Position numbers and translations under genes: made by a program. The notes below the pieces were generated by a model that was not told the DNA's origin, made no database searches, and saw only the letters and a program-made list of their open reading frames with translations. DNA of 64,000 nt from Escherichia virus TH54. This document shows positions 15,580 through 56,178 of the stretch, piece by piece (the first letter of the stretch is position 1; every line of letters starts with the position of its first letter). The stretch lies in sequence record MT446420.1. One strand, 5' to 3'.

Positions 15580-16034
15580 AATGCATCTCTCAATTGGTTA
15601 AGTATGTCAATAAATTCTTGTTCAGTCAATATTGTATCATGAACAGTAAGGTGGCTCGCCATCGAATGCTTTAAAACTTTGCCCTTTGTGGCTTGTAATG
15701 CGTCGCGGAATCCTTTGTTTTGGAGCGCTGCTTCAAAATATGCATTTGTATACAACTCTTTCCATGATGTAGAGTATCTTGAAAAGGGAATTCCAAGCCA
15801 GAAAAGCGTCCCACGGTCCGCAGCTCTTGCATAAGCTCTTCCACTTTGCTGGGCGGCCAATCCGGACATCCCAAATATACGTTTTTGTTGTTCAACATTT
15901 CTCACCTTGCATCCTTGTAGGAAGCCTTCAAGACCTCCAAACTGGATACCCTCCATAACAAAAGGCCATTTAGCAAAGTTACTTAATGCACATGATGGCC
16001 ACGGAAAATTACTTCTGATTTCTAACTCAGACAT
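15576..16034 (-). CDS. hypothetical protein (30.3 position)
   Basis: Track ORF 15576-16181; ATG at 16034 (MSELEIRSNFPWP...) avoids overlap with the upstream gene. Confidence 0.5.
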   Translation of the reverse strand: MSELEIRSNFPWPSCALSNFAKWPFVMEGIQFGGLEGFLQGCKVRNVEQQKRIFGMSGLAAQQSGRAYARAADRGTLFWLGIPFSRYSTSWKELYTNAYFEAALQNKGFRDALQATKGKVLKHSMASHLTVHDTILTEQEFIDILNQLRDAL

Positions 16035-16239
16035 CTTTGACACTGATAATCTTGGTTGCATACCACATGCCATGGTCTGGCAATCTTTCTTTAATTGACC
16101 GCCCGCGATATGTTTTTCGCATAACAACAGTTTTAATAGCATCTTCATCGCAAGCATATGGCGGGGATAAATCAATAACACGATAAGTCACTTCAACCAT
16201 TTCCAAGCCAAACAGCTTTTTAAATAATTTATTAATCAT
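16027..16239 (-). CDS. hypothetical small protein, tandem paralogue A
   Basis: 70 aa; about 50 percent identical to the adjacent 16249-16461 product (shared EMVEVTYRV...IISVKD). Confidence 0.6.
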   Translation of the reverse strand: MINKLFKKLFGLEMVEVTYRVIDLSPPYACDEDAIKTVVMRKTYRGRSIKERLPDHGMWYATKIISVKDV

Positions 16240-16248
16240 GAAGGTTCC

Positions 16249-16461
16249 TTAAATATCTTTGACACTGATAATCTCTACATCAGCCCAATGACCATAACCA
16301 GGTAGACGGTCTTTAATAGATAATCCGCCGTCAGATTTCAGCATTTTAATTGTTTTAGTATATGGTTCAATATTTCGGGCCCATGGACTTACGTCAGTCA
16401 CGCGATAAGTCACTTCAACCATTTCTGTGCCCAAAATCTTCTGAATCAATTTCTTAAACAT
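16249..16461 (-). CDS. hypothetical small protein, tandem paralogue B
   Basis: 70 aa; paralogue of 16027-16239; a 20-nt identical DNA stretch at the 3' ends. Confidence 0.6.
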   Translation of the reverse strand: MFKKLIQKILGTEMVEVTYRVTDVSPWARNIEPYTKTIKMLKSDGGLSIKDRLPGYGHWADVEIISVKDI

Positions 16462-16981: not shown

Positions 16982-17347
16982 TTAGATATCAAATTCATTA
17001 AGAACTACATCAAAGATTGCTTCCAGGTGTTCAGGTTTTGCTTTATTGCTCAGGATGTGACGAATCCAAGTTTTAACCAGAAGCTTGCGATTAACACCAT
17101 TCCAGCAAGGATGAGTCCCTAAATCACGCTCACGGAAATCATCATCTAACGCGATTTTAAAAGTAGAACCTTCTTTAGTGATTGAAAGGGTGATACCATT
17201 TTCAAATCGCATATAAACATAATCAGGAGAAACCCAATGGTCAATTTCACATACCGAACCATTTTTATGTTCCCATAAGCTCATATACTCGTTAGAACCA
17301 ACTGCACCGATAGAAACATATTTGCGTTCAAAGTTGATGTAGTTCAT
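16982..17347 (-). CDS. hypothetical protein
   Basis: 121 aa; GGAGA SD; early promoter with inverted repeat upstream. Confidence 0.6.
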   Translation of the reverse strand: MNYINFERKYVSIGAVGSNEYMSLWEHKNGSVCEIDHWVSPDYVYMRFENGITLSITKEGSTFKIALDDDFRERDLGTHPCWNGVNRKLLVKTWIRHILSNKAKPEHLEAIFDVVLNEFDI

Positions 17348-17374
17348 TTTATTCTCCAGTTGTTTTCATTTGTT

Positions 17375-17414
17375 GGTACAGGTCTATAATATCATAACCT
17401 GTACCAAAGTAAAC
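17375..17414 (-). promoter_or_regulatory. early sigma70-type promoter within a perfect 8-bp inverted repeat (PeSL-like)
   Basis: Minus strand GTTTAC-N17-TATTAT; -10 lies in the loop of GGTACAGG...CCTGTACC. Confidence 0.55.
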
Positions 17415-17418
17415 TGTT

Positions 17419-17787
17419 TTATGCGACTTTAATCCAATTATCTAAATTTAATTCACCCTTAGCTTTCATTTTTTCAATCAAATCATCAGCAGTATTGCGA
17501 CCATTTTGATACCATGTAACATCTTCAGAATAACCAGTTTCTTCATCTTCATAGGTCTTACAACGAATCTTACCGGTTATGATAGTTTTCAGTTCGTAGG
17601 TATCACCAGTAAAAAAGTTTGTTACCATAATTTTCCAAGAGAAGTCATCAGAAGGACCTTCAGGAGTCATGCAACCAACAAATTCAAACTGTTCTTTATA
17701 CAAGTGCCATTGCATCTCTTTAGTTTCAATGGCTTTGTAACCGTCGTGGTCTTTACCTTTGATGTATGAGTTAAGATTGATTTTCAT
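17419..17787 (-). CDS. hypothetical protein
   Basis: 122 aa; GGAGA SD; preceded by a conserved leader repeat. Confidence 0.6.
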   Translation of the reverse strand: MKINLNSYIKGKDHDGYKAIETKEMQWHLYKEQFEFVGCMTPEGPSDDFSWKIMVTNFFTGDTYELKTIITGKIRCKTYEDEETGYSEDVTWYQNGRNTADDLIEKMKAKGELNLDNWIKVA

Positions 17788-17810
17788 TTTATTCTCCAGT
17801 GTTTTATTGT

Positions 17811-17834
17811 GTAACTCAGTATGGAATCATTATG
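17811..17834 (-). repeat. conserved promoter-leader element, copy 1 of 4 (GTAACTCAGTATGGAATCATTAT)
   Basis: Nearly identical 23-24 nt element also at 33977, 52283 and 56121, each just downstream of a TATAAT -10 and upstream of a CTGGAGA SD. Confidence 0.6.
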
Positions 17835-17869
17835 CACTGGGCAAATCCTGTTGTACACCTTTTATGGAA

Positions 17870-17895
17870 AAAAAAAGACTCCCGAAGGAGTCATT
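17870..17895 (-). terminator. hairpin terminator (GACTCC-CGAA-GGAGTC) followed by U-run
   Basis: Perfect stem with CGAA loop and a 9-nt T-run on the minus strand directly after an ORF stop. Confidence 0.65.
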
Positions 17896-18247
17896 TGATA
17901 ATTGTTTTATAGGTTACTTCAGCTGTATAGAAGTTTTTGGCTTTCATTACAATAGCTTCACCCTTTGGATTTGCCTCAATCCATTCTCTGGCGCGTTTAT
18001 GTGCTTCCAGTTCAGTAAGCAAACCAGAACGTTGACAGCCCCGGTCTTGTGTACCAGCTTCACTTAAGAAAGCGACAAGATAAATTGCATCGTCATACGG
18101 TTTCGCAGGTGGTGTGTATATCGGAGGGCTTGGTGGAACATATGCAGCAGGATGATGTTCCGGAATTGCATTGTATGGCTCCAGACCAGGCGCTGCATAC
18201 GATGCTCCACGCGGTGTAGTAAACGTGTGATTGTATCTATCGTTCAT
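17891..18247 (-). CDS. hypothetical protein with Pro-rich N-terminal region
   Basis: 118 aa; AGGAAAAT SD; terminator hairpin at its 3' end. Confidence 0.55.
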   Translation of the reverse strand: MNDRYNHTFTTPRGASYAAPGLEPYNAIPEHHPAAYVPPSPPIYTPPAKPYDDAIYLVAFLSEAGTQDRGCQRSGLLTELEAHKRAREWIEANPKGEAIVMKAKNFYTAEVTYKTIIK

Positions 18248-18261
18248 AATATTTTCCTAGA

Positions 18262-18285
18262 AAAAAAGGGCTCCAAAGAGCCCCT
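18262..18285 (-). terminator. hairpin terminator (GGGCTC-CAAAGA-GCCC) with U-run
   Basis: GC stem plus T-run on the minus strand just downstream of the small basic ORF. Confidence 0.6.
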
Positions 18286-22352: not shown

Positions 22353-22542
22353 AATGTTCTTCCAAGAAGGCCAAGAGTTCTGGAGCGGATTTAAAGATAC
22401 CGCCATCGACCTTGTCTTCATCTTTATAGTCCATTACATCCAGACCAATACGTCCATCTGTTAAAGGCCATACGCTGAAAAAGTATTCGTAACGTTTTTC
22501 AATTTCTTCGATTGTACGAAAAATCTTTTCGATATTATTCAT
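22345..22542 (-). CDS. hypothetical protein
   Basis: 65 aa ORF. Confidence 0.5.
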   Translation of the reverse strand: MNNIEKIFRTIEEIEKRYEYFFSVWPLTDGRIGLDVMDYKDEDKVDGGIFKSAPELLAFLEEHYV

Positions 22543-22731
22543 AGGTTTTCCATGGTAATGGGATTTTAGTTTGCTTTACTGTTAATTCAATACCCGGGTT
22601 CTTGGCTTTTAATTTAAGGCATTCTTCCCAGGCTTTAGATTGACTAGTGAATACACAGAACTGCCCATTGTTAGTTCCAACTAAACCGCCGTCCACGTGA
22701 ACAACGGCCCAGGTTTCATGATGCCAGGCCA

Positions 22732-23954: not shown

Positions 23955-24433
23955 ACACCAAGCTCCTTATAAAGTTCTTCGCGACAGGTTTTAAGGATTT
24001 TACCAGTTTCATAAGCTGCACTTTCAGAAACATCACCAAGTGCAGCAGCAGATTGCATTTGACCATGGCGTTTAGCCGCGTATTCAAAACTTTTCACCAA
24101 TTCACGAATACGTTCTTTTTCATTGTACTCTTCAATGAATTCAGGGTATTCCCAAACAGGTCGCATCATACGATACCAATGCTGAATAGTAATATAATTA
24201 CTTCCATCCAGATTAATAATTTGTGAAGGCTTAATAGCACCCGGAGCATAAAAAGTTACCTGTCTTACTACATCAATACCGTCCACCATAGCCCAAGCAA
24301 AATCAAAAGTTGCCTTCTTTTCAATTGGTGTACTTGCACAGGACCCTAATTTTAAGAGCTTTTGTAATGCAGGGGATTTAACACCTGAAATGTATTCAGG
24401 ATTAGCTACAAAAGAATTGTCACGTAAAGTCAT
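23951..24433 (-). CDS. hypothetical protein with its own early promoter
   Basis: Track ORF 23951-24469; ATG 24433/24439 follows GAGGAA SD and a GTGTACA-N17-TATAAT promoter. Confidence 0.55.
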
Positions 24434-24467
24434 AGTCATTTCCTCAAATTTTATAATCCGTAGGAGC

Positions 24468-24496
24468 ATTATACTCTGCTCCCATGAGTTTGTACA
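24468..24496 (-). promoter_or_regulatory. early sigma70-type promoter (TGTACA-N17-TATAAT)
   Basis: Minus-strand -35 and -10 hexamers with 17-nt spacer; short inverted repeat GAGCA...TGCTC around the -10. Confidence 0.55.
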
Positions 24497-24600
24497 CTAC
24501 TTTCCAAAAATACCATGCATGCACATGCTAAACACGATTCCAAAACAAAAACATGCAGCACCAAATCGAAAGATATCCCATCCGTCAGTACACGCTTCAA

Positions 24601-25748: not shown

Positions 25749-25982
25749 TTAGTAGCGGTTGTAACCTCTAGGACCAAAAGAGTTGGCACCCAGGCGCTCA
25801 TCTTTCTTTTTGGCTTTTGCTCTAAACCCAGAATCACTTGTTTGAGCTTTCAATTCTTTTAACAATTTGGCCTTCAGGTCAGTAATGAAACCAATCCGGC
25901 GGTCTCCCTTGTAGACATAGATTCCATCATTTCTGTCACCATATGCCTGTGTAACTCTGTCATTTGTAATTAAGTTTAACAT
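25749..25982 (-). CDS. truncated paralogue of the alc N-terminal region
   Basis: 77 aa; AYGDRNDGIYVYKGDRRIGFITDLKAKL parallels EYGDRHDGIYVYKGTKKIGLMTDLRKKL in the adjacent alc-like protein. Confidence 0.5.
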   Translation of the reverse strand: MLNLITNDRVTQAYGDRNDGIYVYKGDRRIGFITDLKAKLLKELKAQTSDSGFRAKAKKKDERLGANSFGPRGYNRY

Positions 25983-26053
25983 GTTTTGGTCCTCATCAGT
26001 AGTTGATGGAACCATTATGTATAGAAAGGAGGGGCTTGTACACCCCTTTTTTA

Positions 26054-27190
26054 TTATTCAGGAAGGATTACTTCCGCCTGGTAGTCCAACGGAATGTAAA
26101 GTTTATGATTTTTAAGGAAAACTTTATTGATTTGAGCAATCGTTTGTTCAGTTTCCTGTGGGCGTTGATAGGTGTTCATTAATACGGAGAACAATCCCGG
26201 GTATGGTTTACACAACTCTTGACCTTTAATCGCAAACTCGCGACGGTCTTTTCCTGCTAACTGTTTTTGTGCATCAAGCAACAGTCCAAGAGTGTTGGAC
26301 AGATAATCCAGATGTACAATGGTAAAGGCATTAACTTTTTCACGGGCGTAATCATCACCAGTAAACATGGCAATAACATCATCAGCCCCGCCAGCAACAA
26401 CAACTTCAAACAGACGCTCATTATTATTAATGGAGTCTTTGGTATGATGTAGAGCACAATACCATTCTGTTTTCAGCTTGAACTTCTGACCACTCGCCAG
26501 CTCATAGACGAAGCCTTCAATCTCTTTCATACCACGAACATTCTCAATGCTCGCCGGGTCATATGCTTCAACCAGGAAAGGACGGAGCGCAGCATCTTTG
26601 AACAATTCAGGATAAGGAATATATTCACCAGTTTCATTATGACGAACGTTCAGCAAAATCAGGTCACGTTCCTGATAAGGAAGAACAATGCGATTGGTTG
26701 GTGCAACATATTCCATATTGCAAGTATATCCAGCTTCAGTGATTTCAGTCACACGCGCCCTGAACGCTTCACGATGAGGTTGTTTAAACACCTGCAGAGC
26801 TTCTGCAGCTTGTGAGCTTTTGATTGACCCTTTGGATTTAAAGGCGATATTGGTCTGGTCCATATAAGTGGAAACCAAACTACCATCAGCTTTTGCAGTA
26901 ACCAGGACAACTTCATCAAGGTTAAGGTCCATGGTCATTGGGTTCTCACCCAGATTAAAAAATTTTTCCATAGGACGAGCAGCAATGCGAACTGGACCAT
27001 TGTCATCCATTTCAAACATAATGCCACGACACTCTAAAGCATCATCAAGGAGCCAATCGCTATAGGAAGCATAGTTATAGCTAAAGATGCGGAACTTAGT
27101 TTCAAATGGAGAAACAAAATCCGTATAGAAAAACTTACCTTTATCAGATTCGGCGCAAAGCTTCATTAAGTTATCATATAATTCAATCAT
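26054..27190 (-). CDS. rnlA: RNA ligase 1
   Basis: 378 aa; matches T4 Rnl1 blocks (IFSYNYASYSDWLL, ALECRGIMFEMD, KADGSLVSTY with lysine nucleotidyltransferase motif). Confidence 0.92.
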   Translation of the reverse strand: MIELYDNLMKLCAESDKGKFFYTDFVSPFETKFRIFSYNYASYSDWLLDDALECRGIMFEMDDNGPVRIAARPMEKFFNLGENPMTMDLNLDEVVLVTAKADGSLVSTYMDQTNIAFKSKGSIKSSQAAEALQVFKQPHREAFRARVTEITEAGYTCNMEYVAPTNRIVLPYQERDLILLNVRHNETGEYIPYPELFKDAALRPFLVEAYDPASIENVRGMKEIEGFVYELASGQKFKLKTEWYCALHHTKDSINNNERLFEVVVAGGADDVIAMFTGDDYAREKVNAFTIVHLDYLSNTLGLLLDAQKQLAGKDRREFAIKGQELCKPYPGLFSVLMNTYQRPQETEQTIAQINKVFLKNHKLYIPLDYQAEVILPE

Positions 27191-33708: not shown

Positions 33709-33957
33709 TCATGCATTTTTATTTGCCTTAGCAACTTTCCAGTCAGCTTTAAATTGGTCAACGTCAGAGTGATGAATCCAGAAACCAGATGAGCTGCCAT
33801 CTTCATAAAGAGGACAACCATCGCACTCATCTTTCCAACCCATCGCGCATAAAGTTTCTTCGGCTTTTTCCAGAGCTTCTGGATTGTTACCCTGGATTGT
33901 AAAGTACCATTTGCCTTTAACTTCTGAATCTTTGATGCTCTCACGTTGTAATTTCAT
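33709..33957 (-). CDS. hypothetical Cys-containing small protein
   Basis: 82 aa; GGAGAATAAA SD and conserved leader repeat upstream; CAMGWKDECDGCP motif. Confidence 0.55.
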   Translation of the reverse strand: MKLQRESIKDSEVKGKWYFTIQGNNPEALEKAEETLCAMGWKDECDGCPLYEDGSSSGFWIHHSDVDQFKADWKVAKANKNA

Positions 33958-33976
33958 TTTATTCTCCAGTTATTTG

Positions 33977-34000
33977 GTAACTCAGTATGGGACCATTATG
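33977..34000 (-). repeat. conserved promoter-leader element, copy 2 of 4
   Basis: GTAACTCAGTATGGGACCATTAT, one mismatch versus the other copies. Confidence 0.6.
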
Positions 34001-34030
34001 TCATAGCCCCATTTGATTGTACACTACTTT

Positions 34031-34458: not shown

Positions 34459-34686
34459 CTAAGCTTCAATCAAATTCATATAAAATTCAGCGTCTTCCGG
34501 GTGCATCCCTTCGCAATATTCATTTTGCATAAAGCGGGTAAGGTCTTCAAGAGGACCTTGAACTTCAATTTGAATACTAAAGAATTGGGTATCTTTAATG
34601 TAAGTCATACACAAAGAAGGATACCGATTACGAATAACTTCGTAAGTGTATTCAAAATCAACGATATCAATATTAACTTTAGCCAT
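34459..34686 (-). CDS. hypothetical protein
   Basis: 75 aa ORF with early promoter upstream. Confidence 0.55.
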
Positions 34687-34710
34687 TTTATTTTCCTCAT
34701 GTAGTTGATA

Positions 34711-34746
34711 GGTCTATAATAACATAATCATAGACCCGTTGTAAAC
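34711..34746 (-). promoter_or_regulatory. early promoter with the -10 inside a 7-bp inverted repeat (PeSL-like)
   Basis: Minus strand GTTTAC-N17-TATTAT; GGTCTAT...ATAGACC flanks the -10. Confidence 0.5.
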
Positions 34747-34748
34747 TG

Positions 34749-35111
34749 CTATTTGAAAGCTTTTTGTAGAAGTTCAATGATTTGGTCGACGTTATTAGCA
34801 TCCACAACACAATTAATAGAAACCGCCCCCGAAGGTGTTTTTGCATAATTGGAGTATTCACGGAAGCAATAAAACTCTTCTTCACTAAGTTCAAAATAAT
34901 CATCACCCATGCCATCATCATTATAGATTGCACCATTAGCACAAATGATTTCGGTTACATAATCATAGCCGTCTGCACTTGATATTGATTTAACTTCAAA
35001 CCAACCGCCATTTTCTTGGATGATGTCGACCATACTAGCATTCGATGAACTAATATCAATGAAAGATTTAATACGATGTGGATTGAACTCATATTTTTTG
35101 CCGATTTCCAT
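34749..35111 (-). CDS. hypothetical acidic protein, paralogue of 34031-34402
   Basis: 120 aa; shared GMGDDYFELSEEEFYCF-type block. Confidence 0.55.
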   Translation of the reverse strand: MEIGKKYEFNPHRIKSFIDISSSNASMVDIIQENGGWFEVKSISSADGYDYVTEIICANGAIYNDDGMGDDYFELSEEEFYCFREYSNYAKTPSGAVSINCVVDANNVDQIIELLQKAFK

Positions 35112-35195
35112 TTTTATTTCCTCAGTTGTTATCAGTAGTTGATGGAATCATTATGCCTTAGCTCAAAGGACTTGTACACTACTTTTTGAAAATAA

Positions 35196-35220
35196 AAAAG
35201 GGACCCGAAGGTCCCCTATA
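35196..35220 (-). terminator. hairpin terminator after gene 32 (GGGACC-CGAA-GGTCCC)
   Basis: Perfect stem with CGAA loop followed by T-run on the minus strand immediately after the gene 32 stop. Confidence 0.7.
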
Positions 35221-42357: not shown

Positions 42358-43494
42358 ATGGAAAGATTGATGGCAGAATTTGGACAGGGATATGTCCAAG
42401 TTCCCGTGCTTTCTGAAAATAACGCAGTAAGATATAAATTGTCGATTGCAGGGACTTGTACCAAATCGCCAAACTATCCCTACGTTAAGTTTCAAGATGA
42501 GGCCTTCGGGCCTCAAAACTTCCAGAATGGATTAAACCTTATTGAGATTGACCCTGTAACAAATACAATCACTGCAACTAAAAACTATGGCTTCACAAAA
42601 GACTATGATATTATTTCTCAGGCCTTTGTGACTTATATTAATTCCATCCCGGCGGGTAGGATTGTTTGTTTGATATCACAGGGGAAATTGAATGCTTCCC
42701 AAACTTTAATTGATTGGTTCAGAACACATGGCTCGACTGCATTTCCAGATAAGTGGCTGATTGACCAAGTTGATACTTCGTATTCGGCATTTTATATAAC
42801 TGGTCGAAATGCAATCGTTAAAGAGCATGTGCTGTATAACGATGGGGTAACTGTTGAGGATGTATTGACTCCATTGGAAATGGTGTATGACGACTTCGCT
42901 GATGTGGGTGGCACAGGATTTCCTCTGCGCGTCGTGGAAGACGAAAACACATATTACAGTAATAGTACACAAGAAATAAAACGTTTCCCTACAAACTCTC
43001 CTATCACTCCTGCGGCCGATTATAATATGGCTCCGGGTGATACTTTTTACCTGAAGTTTCAGCTGACATATGACCAGGCACTTAAAGACCTCGGAACAAC
43101 TCAGATGTCTGTTCGATTCTTTAATGGACAGACTATGATTCAGTCAAACGATTATGATATTCCTGCTACGGGTCAAGCAAGCCCTCCGGCTGGTGCATGG
43201 ATGACGTTTGAACGTTACGTTGTTGTTCCACCTGGTGCAGATGGATTTACATTATATGCAAGGAAGACCGTGGCTGCTGGACAAGGTGGAGTAAGGAATA
43301 TTTTCTTTACAGAAATCGCTCGCCAAGAAACACAGGCTAAATCCGCAGAAATCGGTGTTAACGGCATAAGAATGGTTGTTGCTGGAGAACCCGGTAATAT
43401 GGGTAATGTTATTGCTCAATTGAATGATAAAAATGCAACAAGGTCCAGTCAGTCTGGATTTGTATTTGCCGCGGAATTCCGTGAAAAAGAATAA
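42358..43494 (+). CDS. 35: long tail fibre hinge protein gp35
   Basis: 378 aa (T4 gp35 372 aa); conserved order 34-35-36-37. Confidence 0.9.
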   Translation: MERLMAEFGQGYVQVPVLSENNAVRYKLSIAGTCTKSPNYPYVKFQDEAFGPQNFQNGLNLIEIDPVTNTITATKNYGFTKDYDIISQAFVTYINSIPAGRIVCLISQGKLNASQTLIDWFRTHGSTAFPDKWLIDQVDTSYSAFYITGRNAIVKEHVLYNDGVTVEDVLTPLEMVYDDFADVGGTGFPLRVVEDENTYYSNSTQEIKRFPTNSPITPAADYNMAPGDTFYLKFQLTYDQALKDLGTTQMSVRFFNGQTMIQSNDYDIPATGQASPPAGAWMTFERYVVVPPGADGFTLYARKTVAAGQGGVRNIFFTEIARQETQAKSAEIGVNGIRMVVAGEPGNMGNVIAQLNDKNATRSSQSGFVFAAEFREKE

Positions 43495-52035: not shown

Positions 52036-52263
52036 TTATCCCTTAATAGATTTCATATAATTTGACGCATATGATTGTACCACAGTACGTTTCATATGGG
52101 AAGTAGAAACAATCACATCAATCGCTTGTTTACGTTCTTCTTTAGAGTTTGCCAGTTTGAACATGTCAAAGTAATAATAACAAGCTTCTTTGTTAGATTT
52201 GAATTTGGCGTTGATGTATTCTTGACCTTCATTCTGTTGTGCAGTAAACATTTTATTCTCCAA
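52036..52263 (-). CDS. hypothetical protein (motA.1 position)
   Basis: 75 aa ORF preceded by conserved leader repeat and GGAGA SD. Confidence 0.55.
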   Translation of the reverse strand: MENKMFTAQQNEGQEYINAKFKSNKEACYYYFDMFKLANSKEERKQAIDVIVSTSHMKRTVVQSYASNYMKSIKG

Positions 52264-52282
52264 AATTTTTATGATTCAGTGT

Positions 52283-52306
52283 GTAACTCAGTATGGAATC
52301 ATTATG
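52283..52306 (-). repeat. conserved promoter-leader element, copy 3 of 4
   Basis: GTAACTCAGTATGGAATCATTAT, identical core to copies at 17811 and 56121. Confidence 0.6.
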
Positions 52307-52344
52307 CATCGGGTCAAGGGACTTGTACACTACTTTTTAAAATA

Positions 52345-52366
52345 AAAAAGGACCCCGAAGGGCCCT
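52345..52366 (-). terminator. imperfect hairpin terminator with U-run
   Basis: GGGCCC-TTCG-GGGTCC followed by TTTTTT on the minus strand. Confidence 0.5.
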
Positions 52367-54237: not shown

Positions 54238-54687
54238 TTAATAGCTCTGCAGAATGAATTTAAAGTTATCAGCAAGCATGCGATTCATTTCTGAAAGGGT
54301 CTGGCAATCAGAACTATGTGAGCGAGTGAACGCCATCGCAATTTGACCTTTACCATAACCAGTTGTCAAAGGTTTCATTTTAGAAACTGGAACAAACAGG
54401 ACTTCATAGATAACCCCATTGTTCGCCATTGTGCGAGACAGTTGAGAACGTTGTTTGCGGATGTGACTTAATACAGTGTCAAACCCTTGTTGCGAGCGTT
54501 GGTTACCAACATAAAAACGTGCGGCAACAATACGTGATTCGCCTTCACCTTTGACCATGAAATAAAAACCTGGTTGGGTGATAGCTTCTTTAGTCGGGCG
54601 ACCTGCAACATAATTACCATTATGGATGTAAGCAACAGTAGTAGCGCCAGCATTCAGTACGTCACGACGGGTCATATAAGTAGACAT
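54238..54687 (-). CDS. ndd: Ndd nucleoid disruption protein
   Basis: 149 aa (T4 Ndd 151 aa); [28 protein letters not shown] and [11 protein letters not shown] blocks match T4 Ndd from memory. Confidence 0.65.
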
Positions 54688-54725
54688 ATTAATTTCCTCA
54701 GTAAGTTAAAGTTTTGTGCTCCAGT

Positions 54726-54760
54726 GGGGTCATTATACTCTGACCCCAAGAGTTTGTATA
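54726..54760 (-). promoter_or_regulatory. early promoter for ndd with the -10 inside a 7-bp inverted repeat
   Basis: Minus strand TATACA-N17-TATAAT; GGGGTCA...TGACCCC flanks the -10. Confidence 0.5.
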
Positions 54761-55576: not shown

Positions 55577-55693
55577 TCAAAAGAAATAGTTAAAGTAAAC
55601 GCGCACATGGTCAATCATAAAAACAATTGGGAAAATGCTCAGGACAACAAACAGTACAAACATGTTCCAAATGGCTTTAAGTAACTTTTTCAT
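55577..55693 (-). CDS. small hydrophobic peptide (38 aa)
   Basis: Hand-translated MKKLLKAIWNMFVLFVVLSIFPIVFMIDHVRVYFNYFF; GGAGA SD and early promoter upstream. Confidence 0.35.
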   Translation of the reverse strand: MKKLLKAIWNMFVLFVVLSIFPIVFMIDHVRVYFNYFF

Positions 55694-55838
55694 AATCATC
55701 TCCAGTAGTTGATAGGTTCATTATACTACAACCACCGGAGATGTACACTCTTTTATGCAAGTTTCATTAATAATAAACTAAAACAAACGCAAATTACTGG
55801 GATACACAACATCCAGATAAGGCACCAGGTTTTGCTGC

Positions 55839-56105
55839 TCAAAATATCACCTCTTTGATTTCAATCAATCCTCTGTACAATGCGGTGCGAAGGTCATAAA
55901 GAATATCTATGCCATCAACATTATCCAGCTTGCCATCAATAAGCTTTTTCAAATCTTCCTTTGACGCAACTAGTGGGCGAAGAAATTTACAATCAGAAAG
56001 AGACAATTCTGTGGTAACATCATCACCATCACCTGACGCATCATACATAGCGGCAACAACCATACCTGTAATTTTGTGTTTGGCGTAGTATAATTTAATA
56101 TCCAT
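55839..56105 (-). CDS. hypothetical protein
   Basis: Track ORF 55839-56168; ATG 56105 follows conserved leader repeat and GGAGA SD. Confidence 0.5.
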   Translation of the reverse strand: MDIKLYYAKHKITGMVVAAMYDASGDGDDVTTELSLSDCKFLRPLVASKEDLKKLIDGKLDNVDGIDILYDLRTALYRGLIEIKEVIF

Positions 56106-56120
56106 TTGTTTCTCCAGTTG

Positions 56121-56144
56121 GTAACTCAGTATGGAATCATTATA
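56121..56144 (-). repeat. conserved promoter-leader element, copy 4 of 4
   Basis: GTAACTCAGTATGGAATCATTAT. Confidence 0.6.
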
Positions 56145-56178
56145 CATAGACGCCATACTGATGTACACTACTTTTTAA

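Follow-up and report, generated by a model that had tools for sequence, protein, structure and literature searches.

Early promoter-leader cassettes of the PeSL type, with a genus-specific leader, probably precede small early genes of the Gaprivervirus phage TH54

We analyzed a 64,000-nucleotide stretch of Escherichia virus TH54 (MT446420.1; hereafter the window), in which reiterated elements resembling the promoter-early-stem-loop (PeSL) cassettes of T4-type phages lie before small early genes. The segment of interest, 17375-17834, corresponds to the gp30.8 open reading frame (ORF; 17787-17419) and the promoter regions on either side. A 2-kb region around it shares 99.5% identity with Escherichia virus TH57 and 93% with Shigella phage SP18; these two phages belong to the genus Gaprivervirus (Tevenvirinae). 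The full window aligns with TH57 at ~92-99% identity within collinear blocks, with several breaks. The window belongs to a Gaprivervirus (T4-type) phage with an identity to TH57 of ~98%. According to the annotation of SP18 and VR20, it spans uvsW, genes 30 and 31, cd, pseT, nrdAB, td, frd, gene 32, the tail fibres, motA, ndd and rIIB, and runs into the rIIA-gene 39 region; its minus strand carries the early genes. Two families of repeats, hereafter A and B, mark most of the promoters of interest, which, together with the neighboring genes, are located as follows (aa, amino acids; SD, Shine-Dalgarno).

17785-17892, minus strand: family A cassette before gp30.8, with a C(UUCG)G hairpin (17892-17877) followed by T9, the -35 GTGTACA (17858-17852), the -10 CATAAT (17834-17829), the 23-mer (17833-17811), and the candidate SD/RegB block with ATG, GGAGAATAAAATG (17797-17785).
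17419-17787, minus strand: gp30.8 ORF, 122 aa, Pfam Phage_30_8, lying between two cassettes.
17345-17414, minus strand: gp30.7 cassette, with the -35 GTTTAC (17414-17409), a 9-bp perfect inverted repeat around the -10 (17405-17397 / 17383-17375; predicted RNA hairpin of -17.4 kcal/mol) and GGAGAATAAAATG (17357-17345).
17891-18285, minus strand: gp30.6A module, with an ORF of 118 aa (17891-18247) and an upstream terminator-like hairpin (18285-18266).
33955-34024, minus strand: family A cassette before frd.1 (DUF5417; ORF 33957-33709), with the -35 (34024-34018), a variant of the 23-mer (33999-33977) and GGAGAATAAAATG (33967-33955); its spacer pairs with the start region (-15.2 kcal/mol).
52249-52366, minus strand: family A cassette before a 71-aa ORF (52251-52036) upstream of motA, with a UUCG hairpin (52366-52349) followed by a T-run, the -35 (52330-52324), the 23-mer (52305-52283) and GGAGAATAAAATG (52261-52249).
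56103-56168, minus strand: family A cassette before an 88-aa ORF (56105-55839), with the -35 (56168-56162), the 23-mer (56143-56121) and the SD GGAGAAACAAATG; its spacer segment CAGTATGG (56160-56153) pairs with CCATACTG (56134-56127).
25980-26047, minus strand: family B cassette before a 77-aa N-terminal Alc fragment (ORF 25982-25749), with ATAATGGTTCCATCAACTACTG (26018-25997) and a terminator-like hairpin (26047-26030) that holds the -35 in its loop.
35109-35217, minus strand: family B cassette before frd.2 (ORF 35111-34749), with a UUCG hairpin (35217-35198) followed by a T-run, the -35 (35179-35173) and ATAATGATTCCATCAACTACTG (35154-35133).
34684-34746, minus strand: weak family B cassette before frd.3 (ORF 34686-34459), with the -35 GTTTACA (34746-34740), an inverted repeat around the -10 (GGTCTAT 34736-34730 / ATAGACC 34717-34711) and TATCAACTACATGAGG (34710-34695).
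55691-55748, minus strand: family B cassette before a 38-aa ORF (55693-55577), with the -35 (55748-55742) and ATAATGAACCTATCAACTACTG (55724-55703).
54685-54760, minus strand: early promoter before ndd (ORF 54687-54238), with an 8-bp inverted repeat around the -10 (54748-54741 / 54732-54725; -18.3 kcal/mol).
24431-24497, minus strand: early promoter before a 160-aa ORF (24433-23951), with GGAGCA (24482-24477) pairing with TGCTCC (24468-24463) around the -10.

A previous sequence-only reading of this DNA had reported one nearly identical element at four sites. The family A 23-mer, ATAATGATTCCATACTGAGTTAC, was exact at 17811-17833, 52283-52305 and 56121-56143, and the copy at 33977-33999 carried two mismatches; all four lie on the minus strand, as had been stated. 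The element had been placed just downstream of a TATAAT promoter, a description that needs correction, since its first five bases, ATAAT, are part of the -10 hexamer itself, which is TATAAT in one copy and CATAAT in the other three. The remaining 18 nucleotides comprise the discriminator, the predicted start site and ~12 nucleotides of leader, with the start contexts ACTGGAGAATAAAATG (17811 and 33977), TTTGGAGAATAAAATG (52283) and ACTGGAGAAACAAATG (56121). An assignment as NAD-capping promoters was rejected, as this start context does not fit the consensus published for them. Alignment of the four copies revealed three conserved blocks, AAAAAGTAGTGTACA, the 23-mer and CTGGAGAATAAAATG, which are separated by a 17-nucleotide spacer, essentially unrelated among copies, and by a variable piece of leader. 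The AT-richness of intergenic regions is the only argument for chance similarity. Four copies were found in the window against none expected from 100 dinucleotide-preserving shuffles, the copies of VR20 are distributed 13:0 between the strands, and the position of the repeats relative to start codons is fixed, so that we consider chance refuted.

Family A is widespread within these genomes and rare beyond them. The core is present in 13 copies in VR20 and 10 in TH57, all on the early strand. A 52-nucleotide promoter-leader query matched only 34 of 50,697 phage records, at 1-5 places each, and 33 of these records are ~140-172 kb genomes of the VR/SP18/TH (Gaprivervirus) type. Within IMG/VR, only VR20, VR25 and VR26 contained the 23-mer in exact form, and no family A match was detected in the ~95 kb of T4 examined. 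A scan of viral_contigs with the 14-mer CCATACTGAGTTAC returned mostly single chance matches in unrelated contigs and was uninformative. As a separate observation, Shigella phage fPSFA (OR670333.1, 14030-14058) contains a 29-nucleotide exact match to the family A promoter-leader; this 23-kb record does not represent a complete T4-type genome.

The second family proposed in the earlier reading is real at three of its four sites: the family B sequence CCATCAACTACT is matched perfectly at 25998 and 35134 and with a single mismatch at 55704, and the site near 34698 is a weaker member (TATCAACTACATGAGG at 34710-34695). About 12 copies of the family B promoter are present per genome. This family has clear T4 counterparts. 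Its start, ATCAACTACTGA, is identical in the T4 early promoters (Pe) of motA, ndd.6 and imm.1 and in the promoter of the cef-motB intergenic region, and GGAGAATAAAATG likewise recurs in the T4 early promoters before motA, ndd.6 and imm.1 and in the cef-motB intergenic region. Orthologous T4 cassettes at 30.8, 30.7, motA and ndd.6 have their architecture in common with the window promoters. On the T4 side, we observed at least four near-identical copies of a ~90-nucleotide promoter-leader cassette, TTTTTCACAAAAC-GTTTACA-N17-GGTACTATACAACTATCAACTACTGATAC...GGAGAATAAAATG, at positions 27044 and 6594 (T4 1-50000) and at locus positions 43051 and 39638 (T4 124000-168903). In the window, alc is split, its 77-aa N-terminal fragment being placed under its own family B cassette; SP18 likewise annotates alca and alcb.

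Both families belong to a larger set of promoters. A scan with the T4-type early consensus, GTGTACA/GTTTACA-N17-(C/T)ATAAT, detected 15 promoters in the window, all 15 on the minus strand and each preceding an SD and ATG at 19-42 nucleotides. The same scan returned 37 early-type promoters in the whole genome of VR20 and 36 in that of TH57. The ORFs behind the named cassettes are small (38-160 aa) and mostly without assigned function, as had been noted from the sequence.

The 3' edge of the cassettes is nearly uniform, with GGAGAATAAAATG or GAGGAAA..ATG placed 19-42 nucleotides past the predicted start site. The sequence-only reading had pointed out that GGAG is the target of the T4 endoribonuclease RegB, and this remark can be strengthened, because the SD block GGAGAATAAAA fits the consensus of strong RegB/S1 sites, GG*AGRAYARAA (Durand et al. 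2006, reviewed in PMC3014915), at 11 of 11 positions. The window contains four perfect matches to GGAGRAYARAA (17357, 17797, 33967 and 52261) against 0.31 expected, and all four are on the minus strand directly before an ATG; the copy at 56115 (GGAGAAACAAA) departs from the consensus at the Y position. The regB gene is located beyond the limits of the 64-kb window; VR20 has an annotated copy (VR20_112), to which TH57 shows 96% identity along the entire gene. By analogy with T4, the uniform SD-to-ATG block is best read as a strong ribosome site combined with a RegB off-switch, and this double use would account for its uniformity.

Each cassette tends to carry one stable hairpin, located upstream of the promoter or enclosing the -35 or the -10; hairpins of all positions fold at -11 to -20 kcal/mol, and the leaders are unstructured (0 to -3 kcal/mol). 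C(UUCG)G tetraloop hairpins with T-runs stand upstream of the promoter at 17892, 35217 and 52366, and another precedes gp30.6A at 18285. These four have the canonical form of terminators and are predicted to act as such. A second group of inverted repeats encloses the -10: 17405/17375, 24482/24463, 34736/34711, 54748/54725, 56160/56127 and one near 33995. The three perfect repeats of this kind listed in the earlier reading (17405/17375, 34736/34711 and 54748/54725) are all exact, with GGTACAGGT (17405-17397) and ACCTGTACC (17383-17375) as the arms of the first and TGGGGTCA (54748-54741) and TGACCCCA (54732-54725) as those of the last. For the hairpins around the -10, the folding energies range from -13 to -18 kcal/mol. 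The one in the gp30.7 cassette is also found at the orthologous T4 30.7 promoter, and the T4 cd.2 promoter has the same design.

These repeats exceed what chance would produce. Of the promoters, 31% in the window, 32% in VR20 and 28% in TH57 have their -10 between the arms of a perfect inverted repeat of 6 bp or more. After exchange of the 3' arms among promoters (200 permutations, with 13 window promoters taken in), the share was 5-8%, a 4-6 fold enrichment of the observed over the control. None of the 200 permutations reached the observed value in VR20 (maximum 22%) or TH57 (maximum 17%); the maximum for the window was 27%. Arms differ from copy to copy and remain complementary, as in TGGGGTCA/TGACCCCA, TGGGAGCA/TGCTCCCA, GGGAACAT/ATGTTCCC, TGGGATA/TATCCCA and GTGGGACCAT/ATGGTCCCAC, and the loop lengths vary as well. 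The arms at 24482 show compensatory changes relative to the copy at 54748, and the promoter upstream of motB reads GGGACCA/TGGTCCC in T4 and GGGGTCA/TGACCCC at its VR20 counterpart (6478, between motB and motB.1). In the family A copies at 56139 and 33995, the spacer is complementary to the conserved start block itself, and its sequence indicates that it has evolved toward pairing with that block. A degenerate scan of IMG/VR with TACAAACTCNTGGGNNCAGAGTATAATGNNCCC returned VR20, VR25, VR26 and JS98 only, too few for a cross-genus count of covariation.

Hairpins embracing the -10 are an already-published class: five PeSL subclasses are distinguished by stem-loop position, a stem-loop overlapping the -10 being one of the most frequent arrangements (PMC2839356). 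Those of the window are not followed by a U-run and hence are not canonical intrinsic terminators. This feature raises the question of whether they act as DNA, as cruciforms or operators tuning the promoter or as targets of a structure-specific recombination protein, and not as RNA hairpins. Arms that vary, stay complementary and always bracket the -10 would suit such a role, and the PeSL authors themselves speculated on a stem-loop-binding recombination protein (PMC2839356). However, the differing arm sequences exclude a single sequence-specific repressor, and the tendency toward one hairpin per cassette, either upstream of the promoter or over the -10, fits a common insulating or processing role at the RNA level. 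Moreover, a PeSL stem-loop of phi1/RB49 reduced read-through in a reporter (PMC2839356). We therefore regard action at the DNA level as unlikely.

Comparison with VR20, TH57 and SP18 showed that gene content and order change at the cassettes. In the window, TH57 and SP18, gp30.6A lies between two terminator-like hairpins; VR20 lacks the gene and has at this locus a single hairpin, GGGACTCTTCGGAGTCCC, a hybrid of the flanking GGGGCTCTTTGGAGCCC and GACTCCTTCGGGAGTC. The frd.3 gene and the promoter that follows it are absent from SP18, with the junction between two ATGAGGAAA(A/T)TAAAATG blocks. The 160-aa ORF (24433) is also precisely absent from SP18, the cut falling exactly at the ATG of the cassette, and TH57 has an additional 51-aa ORF between the cassette at 56121 and its gene. 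Across the frd.1-frd.3 stretch (33.5-35.2 kb), which contains three cassettes, three gene orders are found among the window and VR20, SP18, and TH57. Promoters and leaders are exchanged too. At one site, the promoter body is identical through ATAATGATTCCAT, after which the window continues with a family B leader and frd.2a and TH57 with a family A leader and frd.2b. The frd.1 promoter is a family A cassette in the window and an unrelated hairpin promoter in TH57. The published crossover zones of PeSLs are the stem-loop and the interval from the -10 to the ATG, and the junctions in the relatives fit these zones. The relatives thus differ at cassette-bounded loci, with junctions inside cassettes, and the identical gene content that the sequence-only reading had named as the outcome that would speak against shuffling is not what we observed; gp30.8 itself is conserved from T4 onward, the variable gene being its neighbor gp30.6A.

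Taken together, these results lead us to propose, with a probability of roughly 80%, that the repeats represent early expression cassettes of the PeSL type, which this Gaprivervirus (T4-type) phage carries before small early genes. Elements of this kind are already known (PeSL definitions: PMC2839356, PMC4122927); what is new here is a version with a genus-specific leader. Every PeSL feature that can be assessed from sequence is present, in agreement with the earlier assignment. All named sites have a sigma70-like early promoter oriented with the downstream gene. The consensus places an A-rich tract (AAAAAGTA/TAAAAAG) directly before the -35, and the SD and ATG of the downstream gene form the 3' edge. 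Of the stem-loop positions described for PeSLs (ahead of the -35, over the -35, between the two boxes, over the -10, or past the -10), the first, second and fourth are represented here. The elements are reiterated on the early strand before small genes of unknown function, and indels and replacements adjoin them, with crossovers inside (gp30.6A, frd.3, the 160-aa and 51-aa ORFs, the leader switch and frd.1). The features of T4-type early promoters are found as well: a GTTTAC-like -35, a TATAAT-like -10, a UP-like A tract, additional conserved positions, and C at -3 to -1.

In the model that we favor, the cassette consists, in order, of the stem-loop, the A-rich UP-like AAAAAGTA, the -35 GTGTACA/GTTTACA, a variable 17-nucleotide spacer, the -10 (C/T)ATAAT, a C-rich discriminator, a predicted A start ~7 nucleotides past the -10, and a short leader without structure, which begins either as AUACUGAGUUAC... 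(family A) or as AUCAACUACUG... (family B), ending with GGAGAAUAAAAUG as putative ribosome site and RegB/S1 site. The host sigma70 RNA polymerase would fire these promoters right after infection, the unstructured leader would allow efficient translation, and minutes later RegB would cut GG^AG and so switch the messages off. The hairpin may insulate the unit from upstream transcription or mark an RNA end. Following the published model of PeSL shuffling, phage recombination at the cassette blocks could then delete, insert, permute or re-promote small genes. Blocks of 15-25 bp that recur 10-13 times per genome in one orientation can serve as homology patches for such exchanges.

Several observations weigh against this proposal. 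By hand tally, only ~8 of ~25 indels and replacements relative to VR20, TH57 and SP18 have their junction in a promoter cassette, only about twice what the proportion of cassette-bearing gene boundaries would predict; the other ~2/3 occurred at homing-endonuclease sites or at microhomologies of plain SD-ATG or stop/start type. The 30.8 and 30.7 cassettes hold the same position in T4; these are long-established resident promoters that also offer patches of homology, rather than roaming or recently moved elements. A generic sigma70 scan was near background (51 against 44 expected and 65 against 52 expected); it barely discriminates, and the case for promoters thus depends on the specific T4-type consensus. 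A further point is the lack of a U-run after the -10-embracing hairpins. Finally, the architecture, the statistics, the conservation pattern and the junctions in the relatives are direct observations, and we infer promoter activity, start site, termination, RegB cleavage and mini-circles from the sequence and from T4, RB49 and phi1.

Some of these points would also be expected if the cassettes were conserved regulatory signals only, kept alike by selection for expression, with indels arising from general short homology and homing endonucleases. The junctions that involve no promoter, the positions kept by the 30.8 and 30.7 promoters from T4 onward, and purifying selection on the -10, start and leader of orthologous cassettes all agree with this explanation, which we hold to be possible but clearly the less probable one. 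It does not readily explain the junctions inside cassettes, namely the hybrid hairpin at gp30.6A, the A/B switch inside ATAATGATTCCAT and the replacement of the frd.1 promoter, or the three gene orders among four close relatives in the frd region with its three cassettes. Selection and shuffling are, in addition, compatible, as selection for expression supplies the homology.

The pattern of constraint extends past the promoter hexamers. Among orthologous cassettes of the four genomes, divergence was lowest in the -10 (0%), followed by the discriminator/start (0.8%) and the leader (+8 to +19; 2.2%), with higher values for the spacer (5.3%) and for third codon positions (6.8%), indicating that start and leader are constrained beyond the hexamers. 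Among the 13 paralogous family A copies, the 12-nucleotide leader block is almost invariant and the neighboring spacer is close to random. These data could mean that the block (ATACTGAGTTAC) is a dedicated cis-regulatory signal of a genus-specific regulon, such as a pause site, a shut-off operator or an RNA recognition element. Its confinement to one genus and its internal -10-like hexamer, CATACT, 11 bp past CATAAT and preceded in some copies by TTGACC 16 nucleotides upstream, fit this possibility, and the mechanism that shuts off T4 early promoters is unknown (PMC2988021, PMC3014915). By contrast, no factor was found, and the search for complementary RNA elsewhere in TH57 and VR20 was negative: on the transcribed strand of these genomes, the complement of the family A leader occurred only in a cassette's own spacer and in one near-match in a coding region. 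The block does not fold into a structure, only 2 of 13 family A copies have TTGACC, and the constraint that strong promoters place on the initially transcribed sequence, together with crossovers copying the block, could suffice. A dedicated leader signal is thus improbable. The more specific proposal that the 12-nucleotide block AUACUGAGUUAC joins ~10-13 small early genes into one regulon, through a sigma70-dependent pause or the docking of an early-promoter shut-off factor, appears to us a little more doubtful still.

As an observation in its own right, all family A blocks hold the -10-like CATACT, which occupies -1 to +5, 11 bp past the true -10, and in 2 of the 13 copies TTGACC is found 16 nucleotides upstream of it (window example, 52317-52290). 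Judging by its sequence, CATACT, with the occasional TTGACC, could be a tandem promoter/start or a sigma70-dependent promoter-proximal pause signal.

Among the closest known systems are the PeSLs of RB49 and phi1 (Arbiol, Comeau & Krisch 2010, PMC2839356). The cassettes of the window resemble them in the succession of stem-loop, A/T-rich tract, sigma70-type promoter, SD and ATG over ~100 bp, in stem-loops placed upstream of or over the -35/-10, in stems built of G-runs and C-runs, in their clustering before small unknown genes, and in the indel and replacement junctions within the elements. They differ in that the -35 is TTGACA in RB49/phi1 and the T4-type GTGTACA/GTTTACA here, that the upstream hairpins here are terminator-like with a C(UUCG)G tetraloop, and that the almost invariant 12-nucleotide leader block is not described in the PeSL papers. 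Mini-circles and promoter and terminator activity were demonstrated experimentally in RB49/phi1 and are predicted for the present cassettes. The PeSLs of T4/PST and KVP40/nt-1 (Comeau, Arbiol & Krisch 2014, PMC4122927) share TTTACW-N17-TAYWAT, a stem-loop just upstream, the SD/ATG 3' edge and a link to gene swaps, e.g. at ndd.4/.5; unlike them, Gaprivervirus favors GTGTACA and has the family A leader. With the T4 early promoters (PMC2988021, PMC1524935), the set has in common UP-like A tracts, the GTTTAC -35, positions conserved outside the hexamers and C residues from -3 to -1, but most copies have G in place of T as the third base of the -35, and the promoters here are more stereotyped, falling into two leader families. 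As in strong T4 RegB/S1 sites (PMC3014915), GGAGAATAAAA, a predicted site with 11 of 11 positions matched, lies in the SD region of early genes within an unstructured leader. Lambdoid morons (Hendrix et al. 2000, discussed in PMC2839356) are likewise single genes with their own promoter and terminator added to a conserved backbone; by contrast, morons are without conserved flanking repeats that serve as recombination sites and are often transcribed against the local direction, whereas the cassettes described here are all co-oriented.

These findings extend PeSL-type cassettes to the genus Gaprivervirus and provide, among genomes that are 94-98% identical, clean sequence-level cases of cassette-mediated gene gain and loss, order permutation, and promoter and leader swaps. 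The cassettes are also of use for annotation, as they map early transcription units and the true start codons of small unassigned ORFs.

Further differences among the relatives were observed at other places in the window. At the gp30.4 position, two tandem paralogous ORFs of 70 aa (16027-16239 and 16249-16461, minus strand) share 38 of 70 residues; both are present in TH57 and one each in VR20 and SP18. A 63-aa ORF (33716-33525, minus strand) separates frd.1 (DUF5417) from the gene that follows; the insertion is gene-precise and has a start/stop overlap, ATGCATGA. VR20 and SP18 lack this ORF, and in TH57 the site is taken up by another segment, of 456 bp. Between cd.4 and pseT, 22542-22730 is an indel hotspot unrelated to promoter cassettes, occupied by a homing-endonuclease gene in SP18, by ~690 bp in TH57, by ~180 bp in the window and by nothing in VR20. 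Finally, a 12-bp perfect inverted repeat, ATAATGTCCTCA-N10-TGAGGACATTAT, is present at 56489-56456 (minus strand). Its 5' arm is the -10 of the promoter 56513/56485 and its 3' arm the SD of the ORF 56454-56179, predicting that this SD would be sequestered in read-through transcripts only, an arrangement that resembles the known hairpin control of T4 e, soc and 49.

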